Origin: a virus
Taxonomy: Duplodnaviria; Heunggongvirae; Uroviricota; Caudoviricetes
IMG/VR virus record: IMGVR_UViG_3300045988_014834
Coordinates: 1 to 41,350 of that record
Length of the DNA stretch: 41,350 bases
Reading direction: 5' to 3' (one strand)
Each line of letters starts with the position of its first letter. The first letter of the stretch is position 1. The notes below the pieces were generated by a model. That model was not told the origin of the DNA. It saw nothing but the letters and a program-made list of their open reading frames with translations, and ran no database searches. Positions 15,859-30,919 of the stretch are shown one piece after another. The translations under genes were made by a program, and so were the position numbers.

Positions 15859-16347
15859 TCAACCTTTCACCGCGCGCCCAATAGCCTCAGCCTCCCGCCA
15901 CGGTTTACCGTCGAATAGTGCAAGACGTCCCGCGGTACGGCGACGCAGGCCGAGTAATGGTTTGCCGTTCTGGTTGATGAACAGCGCCAGCTTAGCCCGC
16001 AGCGTCGAGATATCGCCGGAACGCAGCGCCTTACCTGTGCCAGTAGTAGCGGCAATCACACCAGCACCTGCGTTGTATACCAGGTCACACACTGCGTCGA
16101 ACTGCGCCTGGGTCAGTGAATGGTGTGCTGCTGCATCAACCGCAACTACAGCCTTAGCCATATCACGATTCAGTAACAGGAGGCCTTGCCCCTTCGTAAT
16201 CTTCTGCCCTTCGTACACATGAGGGCCATAGCTTCCGTAGCCTATGGTTAAGTATTTTTCCGAAGGTGTCGCGCGGTATGCGGTCCCGCGGAATCCCTCG
16301 AACGCAGCGGTAAAATGCAATCCATTATCTGAAATGTTTCGAGACAC
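15859..16347 (-). CDS. Endolysin (GH24 lysozyme, T4 E / P22 gp19-like), 162 aa
   Basis: Catalytic region FEGFRGTAY...TIGYG and conserved C-terminal motifs; adjacent to holin-like genes. Confidence 0.85.
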   Translation of the reverse strand: MSRNISDNGLHFTAAFEGFRGTAYRATPSEKYLTIGYGSYGPHVYEGQKITKGQGLLLLNRDMAKAVVAVDAAAHHSLTQAQFDAVCDLVYNAGAGVIAATTGTGKALRSGDISTLRAKLALFINQNGKPLLGLRRRTAGRLALFDGKPWREAEAIGRAVKG

Positions 16348-16597
16348 GCTTATGCCCTCCGTATGATAGCCACGCCTGGCGAATCTGACGCAGCGAAACT
16401 AATGTGATTAATGTCTCCGGCAGCGTCGGCGACATGCCACCCTGTAACAGGTGAATACACCCGGCAGCGCAGACGATAGCAGTCAGGATATAGAGCACCC
16501 GACCAAATATCCCGTCGTCAACGCTGGGGTGATACACGTTAAACAGCGATGTGCCTCCGATCGCCAGCATACCGCCGAACCAGAATAACTCATTCAT
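16325..16597 (-). CDS. Holin/antiholin-like membrane protein, 90 aa
   Basis: Two predicted transmembrane helices; between holin and endolysin. Confidence 0.4.
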   Translation of the reverse strand: MNELFWFGGMLAIGGTSLFNVYHPSVDDGIFGRVLYILTAIVCAAGCIHLLQGGMSPTLPETLITLVSLRQIRQAWLSYGGHKRVSKHFR

Positions 16598-16898
16598 CTG
16601 TGCCTCCTCGACGTTCGATGTATTCTCCGGCTACGATGCCAGAAAGGCGGGAATAGATAGGCATCCAGAGAATGGCAATGATGAATCCGAGGCCAGCTAT
16701 CTCGCGCTCACCGGTAATACCGAACCATTGGGCAGCAAGAGGCGCGCCGAAAATGGCACACGCGAAGCCGGTTAGAAGAAATACCAGTCCGTCAATCGGC
16801 CCGGATATAGACTTTTTATGTTGTCTTAGTCCGACCAATCCACCTACCAGCGCGGCAGCGAGAAGCCACCCCGTCACTGTTTCAGTAAATTTATCCAA
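16590..16898 (-). CDS. Holin-like membrane protein, 102 aa
   Basis: Three hydrophobic helices, charged C-terminus, just upstream of the endolysin. Confidence 0.5.
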   Translation of the reverse strand: MDKFTETVTGWLLAAALVGGLVGLRQHKKSISGPIDGLVFLLTGFACAIFGAPLAAQWFGITGEREIAGLGFIIAILWMPIYSRLSGIVAGEYIERRGGTDE

Positions 16899-27295: not shown

Positions 27296-29566
27296 ATGCC
27301 TAATTTATTATACCTGGATACTGAGACATTCTCTGAAGCGGACTTAAAGAAAGTCGGATCGTATGCGTATGCGGAGCATCCGACAACCGAGATTATAATT
27401 TGTACATATGCCATTGATGATGGGCCCGTAGAAGTATGGGATTGCACTTCCGAACCGGTAATGCCAATAAGCCTCCGCATTGCGCTGCGCAATGTTATGC
27501 GCGGACGTATGAGAATTGTAGGCCATAACTTTTTAATGTTCGACAGGCTTGTTATGAAGCACTGCTGGGGCGTTGATATCAAGCCAAGAAACACCATTGA
27601 CACGATGATTAGAGCGTTTCGTCACGCGTTGCCGGGGTCACTTGATGCGCTGTGCGAAGTGCTGGGCGTATCTGCGGACAACGCTAAAGATAAACGCGGC
27701 AAGGCGCTGATTCAGCGTTTCTCTAAACCCACGCCGAAGAACTACAAAATCCGCCGCTACACCGCTGAAACTCACCCTGACGAGTGGGCTCTGTTCATCA
27801 AGTATGCCGTGAGCGACATCACTGCGATGCGTGAAGTCTTCCATAAGCTGCCGCGTTGGGGTAACTCAGAGTTTGAAGACCGCGTACTGGAACTGGACCA
27901 GTTAATCAACGACCGAGGCTTCTTTGTTGACACGGCTCTTGCTGAGGCGGCGGTAGCGGCAGTGGAACGCCACAAGCAAGAGCTAAAAAACGAGGCCCGC
28001 GCGAAATTCGGGGGGAAACTAACTGGCAAAGATTTCCTGCCAATCCTTCGGGAACTGGCACCGGCCTACAACATTTATAATGCGCAGAAAGCAACGCTCG
28101 AAGGTTTGCTAGAGGACGACGACCTGCCTGATGATGCGCGTACAATCATTGAGATGCGCCTCGGCGCGGCCTCCACGGCGTCGACAAAATACAAACCGCT
28201 CCTGCTAGGACGGTCCAAAGACGGACGGCGCCGTGGTTGCATCCAGTACGGTGGGGCAAAGCGCACTTTACGATTTGCGGGTAAAGGGTTCCAGCCGCAG
28301 AACCTGTCGCGTGGGTACTACCACGACGACCCAACCAACGAGGAAAAGAAACTCGTACGCCAGCCGTGGGAGTCTGACGAAGACTGGAACCGCAGGCTTA
28401 ACCCGCTATCCTTCGGCATCAATTTGCTTTTAAAGGGTCGGGCGCATCGCCGTTTTGATATATCTAAACTAACGGCCTCAACTGTCCGCAGTTGCATCAT
28501 CCCGGAAAAAGGCAATAAGTTGCTCGTTGCCGACTACTCAAACGTGGAAGGTCGTGGGTTAGCCTGGACGGCGGGGGAGACGTCTGCCCTTGAGACGTTC
28601 CGCGCGGGGATTGATATCTATTGCGCCACAGCTGGTAAGATGTTCGGCATGGACCCTATTGAGCTTAAAGCCACCCGTAAGGACCTGCGTCAGGTCGGGA
28701 AATGTTGCGAGCTCGGCCTCGGCTACGAGGGGGGCGTAGGGGCCTTCATGACTATGGCTAAAACTTACGGGCTGGACCTCTTTAAAATGACGGAGACAAT
28801 GCGGGGGACATTCCCTGACCATATATGGGCCGCCACTGCCCGAGGTTATGAATGGGCGCGGATCCAGGAGGCTAAGCGACCTCCAAAACCCGGTAAAAAG
28901 GATGAACGGGCCTCTTACGTGTTGCCTAAGGAAGTGTGGCGTACCTGTGATGCTATCAAGCGCATGTGGCGGGAAGCTCACCCGGAAACAGTGAAATTCT
29001 GGAACGACCTTAAGGATTCGGTAATTGCTGCAATCAGAAATCCGGGACGAGAGTTTTGGGCGGGAGCCAGAGTCCGCCTTAACGGCGACAGAGCTATTCG
29101 CATCTGGCGTACTAAAGAGAAAGACAGACAGGGTAACTTTGTGCCAGGTTGGTGGCTGTGCGTGGAGTTGCCGTCCGGACGCATCATGTCCTACCCTGGC
29201 ATAGGCTTAAGCGTGACTAAAGAAACTGACGAGGATGGGCGCGTAACAACTAACGTTCGCATTAAGTACCAGGGTGAAAACCAGACTACCCGCCAGTGGA
29301 CAACTTTGTACACACACGGTGGAAAATTGTGTGAAAACATCATCCAGGCGTTGTGCCGTGATTTACTGGTTAACGGACTCCTGACGGTCGAGGCAGCGGG
29401 CTACCCAATTGTACTTCACGTGCATGACGAATGCGTCGCCGAAACACCAGACACACCGGAGTACACGGTTAACGAGATGGGTGACCTGTTATGCTCATTA
29501 CCTGAATGGGCTGAAGGATTCCCACTAACATGGGCCGGGGAAGAGGTGTACCGTTATGCTAAGTAA
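27296..29566 (+). CDS. DNA polymerase, family A, with 3'-5' exonuclease domain, 756 aa
   Basis: Exo I motif YLDTETF; PolA motif A DYSNVE, motif B K..G.YG, motif C VHDE. Confidence 0.85.
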   Translation: MPNLLYLDTETFSEADLKKVGSYAYAEHPTTEIIICTYAIDDGPVEVWDCTSEPVMPISLRIALRNVMRGRMRIVGHNFLMFDRLVMKHCWGVDIKPRNTIDTMIRAFRHALPGSLDALCEVLGVSADNAKDKRGKALIQRFSKPTPKNYKIRRYTAETHPDEWALFIKYAVSDITAMREVFHKLPRWGNSEFEDRVLELDQLINDRGFFVDTALAEAAVAAVERHKQELKNEARAKFGGKLTGKDFLPILRELAPAYNIYNAQKATLEGLLEDDDLPDDARTIIEMRLGAASTASTKYKPLLLGRSKDGRRRGCIQYGGAKRTLRFAGKGFQPQNLSRGYYHDDPTNEEKKLVRQPWESDEDWNRRLNPLSFGINLLLKGRAHRRFDISKLTASTVRSCIIPEKGNKLLVADYSNVEGRGLAWTAGETSALETFRAGIDIYCATAGKMFGMDPIELKATRKDLRQVGKCCELGLGYEGGVGAFMTMAKTYGLDLFKMTETMRGTFPDHIWAATARGYEWARIQEAKRPPKPGKKDERASYVLPKEVWRTCDAIKRMWREAHPETVKFWNDLKDSVIAAIRNPGREFWAGARVRLNGDRAIRIWRTKEKDRQGNFVPGWWLCVELPSGRIMSYPGIGLSVTKETDEDGRVTTNVRIKYQGENQTTRQWTTLYTHGGKLCENIIQALCRDLLVNGLLTVEAAGYPIVLHVHDECVAETPDTPEYTVNEMGDLLCSLPEWAEGFPLTWAGEEVYRYAK

Positions 29567-29687
29567 ACTGATTATAGCGGTACTGGCGGGATTCGCTGCC
29601 GGTGTTTACTGTCACGAGGGGCAATACGGCATGATTGTCGCCGTACTAGGCATGTTCATCGCAATTTATCTGTGGGTGCTGGAATGA
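29556..29687 (+). CDS. Small hydrophobic membrane peptide, 43 aa
   Basis: ATG overlapping the polymerase 3' end; one transmembrane helix. Confidence 0.3.
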   Translation: MLSKLIIAVLAGFAAGVYCHEGQYGMIVAVLGMFIAIYLWVLE

Positions 29688-29773
29688 AAATTTACCGGTT
29701 ATACGAAGAAGACTGTAGAATCTGTCTGCGCTGCGGGATTGAGCATACGAAACGGGAGGGGTGTGTACTATGA
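29684..29773 (+). CDS. Small Cys-rich (zinc-ribbon-like) peptide, 29 aa
   Basis: ATGA overlap; Cys pattern C-x2-C ... C. Confidence 0.25.
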   Translation: MKIYRLYEEDCRICLRCGIEHTKREGCVL

Positions 29774-29922
29774 CGATGTTTGTATTTTGGTCGACAGTAA
29801 CCCTGCTCGCACTGTTACTCGGCGCGGGAATAGCCGCGATGTTCTGTTATGGCCTGTTCTTTAAGTTTGTCGGTGTTGCCGTTCTGGGAGGGGCTTTCCT
29901 TACTTGGGTTCTGCGCTCATGA
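29770..29922 (+). CDS. Small membrane protein, 50 aa
   Basis: ATGA overlaps on both sides; two hydrophobic segments. Confidence 0.3.
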   Translation: MTMFVFWSTVTLLALLLGAGIAAMFCYGLFFKFVGVAVLGGAFLTWVLRS

Positions 29923-30203
29923 CTAAAGAGGGCCGCGTACAGAAATACGCAAAGGAGCGATTCGAGGCCCTCGGGGGCCTCGTTCGAAAGCTGTCTTATG
30001 AGGGACGCTCCGGCGCCCCCGACCTCCTGGTAATTCTCCCCGGCGGCATTGTCTGGTTTGTCGAGGTTAAGAAAGACGAAAATACGAAGCCAGACCCGCA
30101 CCAGTTACGTGAACATGAGAGATTTCGAAAACGTGGTGCAAATGTTTTTGTCGTCGGTTCGTTTAAACAGGTTGACGACCTAATAGCGAACTATTATAGT
30201 TAG
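29919..30203 (+). CDS. VRR-NUC domain nuclease, 94 aa
   Basis: Core PDLLVILPGGIVWFVEVKK (D...E.K PD-(D/E)XK pattern). Confidence 0.55.
   Translation: MTKEGRVQKYAKERFEALGGLVRKLSYEGRSGAPDLLVILPGGIVWFVEVKKDENTKPDPHQLREHERFRKRGANVFVVGSFKQVDDLIANYYS
30172..30200 (+). promoter_or_regulatory. Middle promoter TTGACG, 17 nt, TATAGT with palindrome AATAG-N4-CTATT (30182-30195)
   Basis: ttgacgacctAATAGcgaaCTATTatagtt, inside the 3' end of the VRR-NUC gene. Confidence 0.5.
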
Positions 30204-30233
30204 TCCTACACCAACAATATAAGGAATTGAGAA

Positions 30234-30425
30234 ATGAAACACGAATATGACCGCAAGCCAGCCCGTGACATCGTACCAGGTGACATGATTTTCAACGTTA
30301 AGACACGCCAGCCTGTTGCCGTTGATACGGTGTTCGTCGAGTCGAACGGTAAACTGGTTATCGAGGACGTAACCGGTAACGTTACGGCGTTTGGGCGTAA
30401 AGAGTTAGTTCTGGTGTTGAAATGA
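30234..30425 (+). CDS. Hypothetical protein, 63 aa
   Basis: AAGGAAT upstream of the ATG. Confidence 0.4.
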   Translation: MKHEYDRKPARDIVPGDMIFNVKTRQPVAVDTVFVESNGKLVIEDVTGNVTAFGRKELVLVLK

Positions 30426-30919
30426 ACAAATTAACTAGAAGGCCTGATATTGAGGAGGCGAAACGTCTTCTTAACTATGACCCCGAAACAGGCGTATTTA
30501 CACGGAAAGTAAGCATAAAAGGTAGGAATGCGGGGGAGGTAGCCGGGGGTCCAAACGACAAAGAATACATAGTTATCACCGTATCTGGTGTAAGAATAAA
30601 AGCCCACCATCTGGCATGGGCTTTCGTCTACGGAGAATATCATAATGGTGAGCTTGACCATAAAGACCGTAACAGGGCTAATAACGCCATAAATAATATA
30701 AGGCCAGCAACCAGGAGCCAGCAGATTCAGAACCGAGACTGCGCATCACATAACACTAGCGGTGCGATAGGGGTTTACCAAATACCCTCTGGCAGGTGGC
30801 GCGCCAGAATAGGCGTCAATAACAAATACATCCACCTTGGCTATTTTGACACTATAGAAGAAGCGTCGCGCGTATACCAAAGAGCCGCGGAAATATACTT
30901 CGGGGAGTTCAGGGCATGA
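30422..30919 (+). CDS. HNH homing endonuclease with C-terminal AP2-like DNA-binding domain, 165 aa
   Basis: HNH motif HH...ELDHKDRNRANN..NN; C-terminal GVYQ..SGRWRARI...LGYF.T.EEA..Y. Confidence 0.65.
   Translation: MNKLTRRPDIEEAKRLLNYDPETGVFTRKVSIKGRNAGEVAGGPNDKEYIVITVSGVRIKAHHLAWAFVYGEYHNGELDHKDRNRANNAINNIRPATRSQQIQNRDCASHNTSGAIGVYQIPSGRWRARIGVNNKYIHLGYFDTIEEASRVYQRAAEIYFGEFRA

Follow-up and report, generated by a model that had tools for sequence, protein, structure and literature searches.

Three Short Coupled Genes between polA and VRR-NUC in a Guernseyvirinae Phage: A Probable Core Micro-protein and Two Putative Membrane Peptides

Introduction

What is encoded in the short stretch that separates the DNA polymerase gene from the VRR-NUC nuclease gene in the replication operon of a tailed phage? 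The question is raised by IMG/VR virus record IMGVR_UViG_3300045988_014834, of which positions 1 to 41,350 (41,350 nucleotides, here called the window) were analyzed; the sequence belongs to a siphophage that resembles Kagunavirus, in the subfamily Guernseyvirinae. An earlier note on this DNA described positions 29567-29903 as empty in its track of open reading frames (ORFs) and read there three ATG-initiated, ATGA-coupled ORFs of 43, 29, and 50 amino acids (aa), here called ORF1, ORF2, and ORF3. The sequence and the ORF list agree on this reading. Only in that track was the stretch empty: the records of phages SZH-1 (URG18175-77), Bas70 (Bas70_0039-41), ST521_1PISJ, and Shashou list these three genes, calling their products hypothetical proteins.

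Comparison with related phages answers the question in stages. The three ORFs are genuine protein-coding genes, a point on which hardly any doubt is left. They are not new but catalogued members of phage families, and the finding is ordinary in kind; to call small membrane peptides at this place unexpected was thus an overstatement, the genes being already present in PHROGs and in many GenBank records. Literature searches on Guernseyvirinae and Jerseyvirus returned only genome announcements and characterization papers, none of which addresses ORF1-3. Judged from their distribution among sequence records, ORF2 is very likely a core gene of the group and ORF1 and ORF3 are accessory. The explanation that best accommodates the whole, favored with somewhat less than even confidence, is that of a core zinc micro-protein encoded in a replication operon together with dispensable membrane hairpins.

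Evidence for Three Protein-coding Genes

The evidence comes from 91 related loci, comprising annotated phage records, 79 IMG/VR loci found via the VRR-NUC protein, and two contigs added later. Sixty of these loci carry the micro-gene cluster, and the conservation counts given below refer to them. ORF1 has an identical ATG...TGA frame and a length of 132 nucleotides (nt) in 52 of 53 copies, the core frame of ORF2 is open up to its TGA stop in all 60, and every one of the 29 copies of ORF3 is intact, with either an ATG or a GTG start. At a synonymous divergence (dS) of 0.29-0.57, conservation of frame and length to this degree is far beyond chance. One copy of ORF1 among the 53, in the SETP3-type locus L036, has ACG in place of ATG, so that its product would begin TLSKL...; this suggests either that loss of ORF1 is under way in that lineage or a sequencing error.

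The ratio of nonsynonymous to synonymous substitution rates (dN/dS), obtained as pooled pairwise Nei-Gojobori estimates over 26-45 distinct relatives or sequences, points the same way. In the frame as read it is 0.20 for ORF1 (dS 0.29), 0.08 for ORF2 (dS 0.57), and 0.17 for ORF3 (dS 0.36), compared with 1.05 and 2.69, 2.92 and 1.40, and 0.79 and 1.63, respectively, in the shifted frames. The last 99 codons of polA give 0.10 and VRR-NUC gives 0.14. Variation in all three ORFs is greatest at third codon positions. Shine-Dalgarno motifs of the GGAG/GAGG type are conserved 7-10 nt ahead of ORF1 and ORF3, represented in the window by a GAGG-type motif 7-8 nt upstream of the ORF1 start and by GGGAGGGG upstream of ORF3. 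The Shine-Dalgarno motif of ORF2 is weak, and its translation probably depends on coupling. Each ORF also matches a PHROG family listed as of unknown function: ORF1 matches phrog_10404 (E 9e-31, profile positions 1-43 of 43), ORF2 matches phrog_38225 (E 3e-17, 5-32 of 36), and ORF3 matches phrog_14925 (E 5e-32, 1-50 of 50). The earlier note had named conservation in related phages as one check on its three frames, and would have counted its lack against them; conservation and purifying selection are both clearly seen in all three.

Two alternatives in which the ORFs would not be separate genes can be judged from these data. The ORFs are very short and went uncalled in the track behind the earlier note, as might be expected of chance ORFs in a non-coding spacer, but that explanation is refuted by their conserved frames, by purifying selection, by the Shine-Dalgarno motifs, by the PHROG match found for each, and by the lack of a match to any RNA family. 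In the other alternative, the TAA stop of polA would be read through, or a programmed frameshift would join ORF1 to ORF2 or ORF2 to ORF3. The polA frame, which is also that of ORF2, does run without a stop from the TAA to the end of ORF2 (window 29564-29773; likewise in loci L008 and L017), and ORFs of 72-79 aa that pass from the frame of ORF1 to that of ORF2 (P0074, P0079-P0081, P0084) or span ORF2 and ORF3 (P0147, P0157, P0171) occur in metagenome assemblies (Logan, ENA). Across ORF1, however, dN/dS is 0.20 in the frame of ORF1 itself but about 1 in the frame continuing from polA and 2.7 in the third. That the polA frame stays open is explained by composition, since a stop in it requires a codon that starts with AA, AG, or GA after a codon that ends in T, and the hydrophobic peptide offers only four such sites. 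Moreover, polA and ORF2 do not share a frame in Jersey-type genomes, and the fusion ORFs, each of which switches frame at a different point, more likely stem from indel mutations or faulty assembly than from a programmed event. Read-through and programmed frameshifting are rejected on the strength of the frame-specific dN/dS, the composition, and the scattered shift points, and retain scarcely any probability.

Organization of the Locus

The positions of the three genes and of the features discussed with them are collected in Table 1. The mechanical ORF list begins ORF2 at an in-frame GTG (29672) rather than at its ATG and begins ORF3 at GTG 29761. Stop-start overlaps of the ATGA type are found at three junctions, ORF1/ORF2, ORF2/ORF3, and ORF3/VRR-NUC, and the end of polA overlaps ORF1 by 11 nt. 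The order of genes on the plus strand is helicase-primase, exonuclease, Gp2.5-like single-stranded DNA-binding protein, polA, ORF1-3, VRR-NUC, a 63-aa ORF, an HNH endonuclease, and an SNF2 helicase. Over the 900 bases around the cluster, the window is 89-91% identical to Salmonella phage SGP007 and to Escherichia phages SZH-1, BUCT789, and hz69, and megablast of the cluster region matches 225 phage records.

Table 1. Features at and near the micro-gene cluster, in window coordinates
Feature	Position	Strand	Description
Lysis genes	15859-16898	-	two holins (phrog_2508, phrog_2359) and endolysin; about 13 kb from the cluster
polA	27296-29566	+	family A DNA polymerase, 756 aa; from the ORF list; relatives annotate homologues as DNA polymerase
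ORF1	29556-29687	+	43 aa; likely accessory membrane peptide; ATG start, TGA stop; phrog_10404
ORF2	29684-29773	+	29 aa; polar Cys/His micro-protein, very likely the core gene of the cluster; ATG start, TGA stop; phrog_38225
ORF3	29770-29922	+	50 aa; likely accessory membrane peptide; ATG start, TGA stop; phrog_14925
VRR-NUC	29919-30203	+	nuclease, 94 aa; ATG start; phrog_93, phrog_5702; VRR-NUC or Holliday junction resolvase in relatives
63-aa ORF	30234-30425	+	homologue named "holin protein" in SGP007
HNH homing endonuclease	30422-30919	+	165 aa; phrog_99, E 1e-60; follows the 63-aa ORF and precedes the SNF2 helicase

No promoter-like site was found on either strand between 29200 and 30300, and the Rfam scan of the region gave no match within the cluster. 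The single terminator-like match within it, inside ORF3 at 29823-29838, is at chance level (4 found, 5.3 expected). Together with the coding evidence, these results indicate that the three ORFs are protein-coding and co-transcribed with the replication genes.

Downstream, the place of the HNH endonuclease of the window is taken in SZH-1, Bas70, K1G, and Jersey by a cytosine DNA methyltransferase, making this a second variable slot in the operon. The SGP007 record (locus L003, PV654122.1 10696-11567) names the homologue of the 63-aa ORF a "holin protein" and the next gene a "portal protein"; at these positions SZH-1 and Bas70 have a hypothetical protein and a DNA methyltransferase, and the SGP007 names are likely a misannotation.

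A Core Gene and Two Accessory Genes

The three ORFs differ widely in how regularly they occur. Record counts were obtained by tblastn against 50,697 phage records, about 456 of which match the flanking DNA. ORF2 was found in 448 records (324 from Salmonella phages and 105 from Escherichia phages), ORF1 in 224 (106 and 103), and ORF3 in 121 (50 and 61). Thus, ORF1 is absent in about half of the close relatives and ORF3 in about three quarters, the replication genes being the same. The treatment of the three micro-ORFs in the earlier note as one group holds insofar as the genes are coupled, but their status is unequal, ORF2 having the distribution of a core gene and ORF1 and ORF3 being dispensable in a variable hot spot. 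The region matching ORF2 carries no annotated feature in 15 of 40 sampled records, many Jerseyvirus records among those unannotated there.

Fourteen architectures are found between polA and VRR-NUC in the 60 mapped loci. The full ORF1-ORF2-ORF3 arrangement occurs in 21 of them, the window included, ORF1-ORF2 only in 14, ORF2 alone in 5, and ORF2-ORF3 in 2, so that ORF2 exists in some loci without either of its neighbors. Elsewhere ORF1-ORF2 is followed by a 165-aa HNH homing endonuclease (the Shashou and SETP3 type), by an N-terminal remnant of an HNH endonuclease (Jersey_40), by a 63-aa soluble, Cys-containing ORF with or without ORF3, or by single-helix peptides of 23-25 aa; in two loci an HNH endonuclease lies between polA and ORF1. 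The ORF3 slot is a hot spot, occupied by HNH endonucleases, their remnants, other micro-peptides, or nothing. Alternative occupants are seen in loci L009, L010, L012, L015, L016, L026, L035, L036, L040, L054, L057, and L062. The 63-aa soluble ORF of the hot spot is itself conserved (MSNKPFSKKLAALVDMPEWEF...CAGCTHKG...), and of the single-helix peptides MTMLTTIMIIVAVFLGVAVLSKVTD and MITIIAVLVALLLGAAIFSRIIG, the former resembles an internally deleted ORF3.

The relationship between ORF1 and ORF2 is illustrated by an indel. In the Jersey-type genomes, which lack ORF1, the Cys-rich gene takes a 36-aa form, MLSKLIIYYF[HR]EEDCRICPRCGIEHTKREGCIDEYA, which takes over the ribosome-binding site, the start codon, and the first seven codons (MLSKLII) of ORF1, in frame with the core of ORF2, and which corresponds to the full 36-position PHROG profile. 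This form and the split form of the window differ by 116 nt. A single deletion is far simpler than an insertion that would create both a complete hairpin ORF and a new ATGA junction; we infer that the split form is probably ancestral and that a 116-nt deletion gave rise to the Jersey-type form. The more divergent outgroups lack both ORF1 and ORF2 and cannot decide the polarity of the change. A search of the whole window by blastn-short and tblastn for an intragenomic source of the 116-nt ORF1 body returned chance matches only. In either indel state the expression of ORF2 is kept, which marks it as the gene that matters.

A further feature of the locus concerns the adjacent polymerase. The C-terminus of polA (window 29267-29563, the last 99 codons; loci L001-L058) occurs in two allelic types, of 98-99% and 68-75% amino acid identity to the window, and the micro-ORFs beside it are about 80-100% identical in nearly all loci, the exception being a 70%-identical ORF1 in LSPA1. 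Two polA 3' allelic types next to near-uniform micro-ORFs indicate a recombination breakpoint at or near the 3' end of polA. Inteins are present in neighboring replication genes of relatives, in the helicase of Shashou (locus L009) and, as an "intein-containing DNA polymerase precursor," in LP31, S532, and vB-SeS-01, and fit heavy traffic of selfish elements in the replication module.

From such traffic it might be argued that ORF1 and ORF3 are functionless passengers of homing endonucleases and recombination and that only ORF2 matters, a view to which both the changing occupancy of the slot, among HNH endonucleases, the Jersey_40 remnant, other small ORFs, and nothing, and the frequent recombination implied by the polA alleles lend themselves. 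ORF1 and ORF3 are, however, under purifying selection (dN/dS 0.17-0.20, whereas the other frames give about 1 or more) and keep their exact length and motifs across E. coli and Salmonella phages, and ORF3 has, in divergent phages, homologues of 43-51% identity that agree with it in length and in hairpin motifs. Lack of function is accordingly regarded as highly improbable.

The Cys/His Micro-protein ORF2

ORF2 (MKIYRLYEEDCRICLRCGIEHTKREGCVL) is polar and charged (+6/-5), with Cys residues at positions 11, 14, 17, and 27. Across 29 distinct sequences, its conserved pattern is ..IY...EEDcRICpRcGiehTKREGC.., with CPRCG-x2-H-x5-C as the core of the motif. No variation is seen at C14, G18, T22-K-R-E-G, or C27, and position 17 has Cys in 59 of the 60 loci. 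The remaining candidate ligands are less strictly kept: C11 is replaced by Arg or Phe in 6 of the 60 loci and H21 by Gln or Tyr in 2, but the two are never lost together. Such a pattern fits a single metal site to which the CPxCG knuckle and C27 contribute, together with H21 or else C11, and on this basis ORF2 probably binds zinc as a single knuckle, although with no more than moderate confidence.

The description of the middle ORF in the earlier note as zinc-ribbon-like is right to the extent that the peptide is Cys-rich and plausibly zinc-binding. Beyond that the term overstates the case: the peptide has a single near-invariant CxxC (C14, C17), followed by a second half of the type H21...C27, and matches no zinc-ribbon family; a classic zinc ribbon has two CxxC knuckles and a three-stranded sheet, of which ORF2 shows one knuckle only. 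When the ORF2 profile was compared with the PDB, the matches were non-significant (E at least 0.3) and confined to the six-residue ICPRCG knuckles of RpoM, S27ae, Nop10, and RPA12. Protein P0183, the one hit of a wide profile search that lay outside the ORF2 cluster and was first taken as a possible relative, is a spurious repetitive protein of 601 aa and was discarded.

The Probable Membrane Peptides ORF1 and ORF3

The claim that the outer two ORFs are membrane peptides is upheld by hydropathy and, for ORF3, by an AlphaFold2 model. The grand average of hydropathy is 1.53 for ORF1 (MLSKLIIAVLAGFAAGVYCHEGQYGMIVAVLGMFIAIYLWVLE) and 1.68 for ORF3. Each has two hydrophobic segments, of which at least one per peptide has a clearly negative apparent free energy of membrane insertion. 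In ORF1 the segments, at about 5-19 and 26-42, flank a conserved polar turn, YCHEGQYG, that is invariant or near-invariant; the first helix is weakly hydrophobic and Gly/Ala-rich and the second strongly hydrophobic. ORF3 is modeled as a two-helix hairpin (helices 2-26 and 29-49) with a mean predicted local distance difference test score (pLDDT) of 86, and conserves the small-residue motifs LLLGAGIAA and GVAVLGG. Hydropathy and modeling together make it likely that both are helical hairpins of the inner membrane. Both also show the pattern ...C[HY]...VAVLG...WVL, but descent of the two from a common ancestral gene is not supported, as hhalign of the family alignments gives a probability of 0.9% over 8 columns.

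The ORF3 hairpin model has no Foldseek matches in the PDB or BFVD, and searches of the cluster with Pfam, NCBIfam, and PADLOC yielded nothing at or near curated thresholds; weak membrane-composition hits to EMC6, MARVEL, and PufX were disregarded. One ORF1 homologue bears the name "TMhelix containing protein." Members of the ORF1 and ORF3 families occur only on contigs of phage size from this group, except for two distant ORF3 homologues, P0184 and P0185, on two divergent contigs. These are 43-51% identical to ORF3, have the same length and hairpin motifs, and are encoded directly after the C-terminus of polA and upstream of VRR-NUC, where ORF1 and ORF2 are absent. One of the two divergent contigs, that of P0184 (locus L090), shows DNA resembling that of Guernseyvirinae, with about 70% identity across polA and the methylase. 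A tblastn search of the phage collection with P0184 gave no match.

Small hydrophobic ORFs directly after the polymerase gene are also seen in distant phages whose polA is 43-48% identical, at about 1400-1500 in L068, 1265-1500 in L079, and 728-1023 in L081. They are unrelated to ORF1 or ORF3 and include, for example, MITERLLVATLAVLVPIIAAGLLTIIVLEFQ and a 67-aa ORF with multiple transmembrane segments in L081, and a transmembrane segment with a Cys-rich tail in L079.

Peptides of this kind may damage membranes, and ORF1, ORF3, or both could be viroporins or resemble holins, antiholins, or type I toxins, depolarizing or permeabilizing the inner membrane for host shut-off or for the timing of lysis. 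Their size (43-50 aa), the pair of weakly hydrophobic helices, rich in Gly and Ala and bearing GxxxG-like motifs of the sort seen in membrane peptides that oligomerize, and the 23-25-aa variants with a single transmembrane segment in the same slot of relatives are all features that such a role would predict. Against it, the phage has its own lysis cassette elsewhere, with two holins and an endolysin; the peptides end only in -VLE and -VLRS, lacking the charged cytoplasmic tail typical of holins; and they are expressed from a replication operon, where an unregulated toxin would do harm. Region scans, moreover, detected no antisense promoter or RNA signal, and no PHROG lysis family or PADLOC model was matched. 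A membrane-damaging role is quite improbable in consequence.

Functional Interpretation

How might a core micro-protein and two dispensable peptides function together in one operon? In the preferred explanation of a core zinc micro-protein with membrane hairpins, ORF1-3 are transcribed with the replication operon and translated through stop-start (ATGA) coupling. ORF2 would be a micro-protein of 29-36 aa folded round one zinc ion, with C14, C17, and C27 as ligands together with H21 or C11, and may assist, as a small accessory protein or adaptor, the replication and recombination proteins whose genes invariably surround its own. That ORF2 acts in replication or recombination is a possibility to be entertained only tentatively. 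ORF1 and ORF3 would insert in the inner membrane of the host as helical hairpins, probably oligomerizing via their Gly/Ala motifs, and would act on the cell envelope early in infection, not in DNA synthesis, so as to give a competitive advantage. The most plausible role for them would be superinfection exclusion or modulation of the host membrane; by analogy with known phage proteins an action of ORF1 and ORF3 in exclusion or envelope modulation can be proposed, and it is rather doubtful. The part in exclusion, membrane signaling, or toxicity that the earlier note had suggested for the small membrane peptides is likewise a conjecture. Their site is a hot spot of recombination and homing endonucleases in which small genes are gained, lost, and exchanged.

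Several points weigh against this interpretation. Apart from an unrelated weak hit, Pfam and NCBIfam contain no family that matches ORF2 at E ≤ 10, and the AlphaFold2 model of ORF2, a short β-hairpin around the knuckle, is of low confidence (pLDDT 56). When 1.84 billion cluster representatives were searched exhaustively with a profile that spanned ORF3 columns as well, it was through these columns that P0184 and P0185 came to light, and no ORF2 homologue was recovered outside the ORF2 cluster, so that no function can be transferred to ORF2 from anything known. For the membrane peptides, the argument for exclusion or modulation draws on size, hydrophobicity, patchy distribution, and analogy only, and no PADLOC defense or exclusion model was hit at E ≤ 10. 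Finally, the presence of ORF3-like genes directly after polA, and of unrelated transmembrane peptides after distant polA genes, would fit a membrane role linked to replication equally well.

A role of that kind, in which ORF1 and ORF3 would anchor or organize the phage replisome on the inner membrane, with ORF2 perhaps acting as their soluble zinc adaptor, is suggested by the location of the genes inside the replication operon, by their translational coupling to polA and VRR-NUC, by the place directly after polA that divergent ORF3 homologues keep, and by the unrelated small transmembrane ORFs that follow polA in L068, L079, and L081. With ORF1 gone from about half of the relatives and ORF3 from about three quarters, however, neither can be required for replication; the peptides are nearly all membrane-embedded, without a soluble domain that could bind DNA or protein; and ORF2 exists without both of them. 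Tethering of replication to the membrane is therefore considered improbable, and the interpretation of ORF1 and ORF3 as dispensable envelope peptides is retained as the better of the two.

A bolder form of the preferred interpretation would make ORF2 an essential, overlooked zinc-knuckle subunit or adaptor, 29-36 aa in length, of the Guernseyvirinae replication and recombination machinery, frequently unannotated owing to its small size, and would make the flanking hairpins exchangeable cassettes for exclusion or counter-defense, shuffled at the homing-endonuclease hot spot after polA. This extension is unlikely as matters stand.

What the comparison does change is the view of the locus. The 337-bp "empty" stretch holds three selected genes that relatives and PHROGs already list, so that it can be read neither as a spacer with a regulatory role nor as something novel, and it demonstrates that phage genes of 29-50 codons can be validated by comparative data alone. 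The added value lies in a near-universal, often unannotated gene for a putative zinc-knuckle micro-protein, in two exchangeable genes for likely membrane hairpins, in the indel that links ORF1 and ORF2, and in the hot spot. For phages employed in the biocontrol of Salmonella and E. coli, ORF2, the smallest yet most conserved gene of the cluster, would be a reasonable target in studies of the replication module. The site after polA is a natural place for the swapping of tiny membrane peptides and homing endonucleases, and could be useful for finding accessory micro-proteins of exclusion or anti-defense, or as a permissive insertion site in phage engineering.

Comparison with Known Systems

Comparison with characterized systems shows which features of the three genes are shared more widely and which set them apart. 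ORF2 resembles the CPxCG knuckles of RpoM/TFIIS, S27ae, and Nop10 in its near-invariant I-C-P-R-C-G, which in ORF2 is followed by His and Cys; unlike these zinc-ribbon modules, it has no second CxxC knuckle. The spacing of retroviral-type CCHC knuckles is C-x2-C-x4-H-x4-C. ORF2 has the same span of 14 residues from first to last ligand, but its spacing is C-x2-C-x3-H-x5-C, and there is no match to zf-CCHC in Pfam.

For the membrane peptides, a range of phage and bacterial proteins offers partial parallels. Type I toxins of the Hok, TisB, and Ldr type, which have a promoter of their own and an antisense RNA antitoxin that overlaps or adjoins them, differ from ORF1 and ORF3, which are operon-internal and ATGA-coupled, with no promoter-like site or Rfam match in 29200-30300. 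Class II holins or pinholins such as S68 of phage 21 are built of two transmembrane helices, of which the first is rich in Gly and Ala and weakly hydrophobic, and ORF1 and ORF3 share this two-helix layout; in contrast to these holins, they lie outside the lysis cassette, lack a charged tail at the C-terminus, and have no match to a holin family in PHROG or Pfam. T4 Imm and HK97 gp15 are small inner-membrane proteins of phages that act in superinfection exclusion. As far as sequence can tell, ORF1 and ORF3 would resemble them in being small, hydrophobic, expressed before lysis, dispensable, and patchy in distribution, but they are half the size, and no similarity of sequence or fold was detected. 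The φ29 proteins p1 and p16.7, membrane organizers of phage DNA replication, have soluble DNA- or protein-binding domains (85-130 aa). Like them, ORF1 and ORF3 are putative membrane proteins encoded with replication genes, but they are nearly all membrane-embedded and are absent from many close relatives.

The closest counterparts by far are the PHROG and Guernseyvirinae members themselves, which equal ORF1-3 of the window in length, match them over the full length at 80-100% identity, and follow one another in the same order from polA to VRR-NUC. Nothing essential distinguishes the genes of the window from these, the ORF2 of the window having R5 and L15 where the consensus has Trp and Pro.

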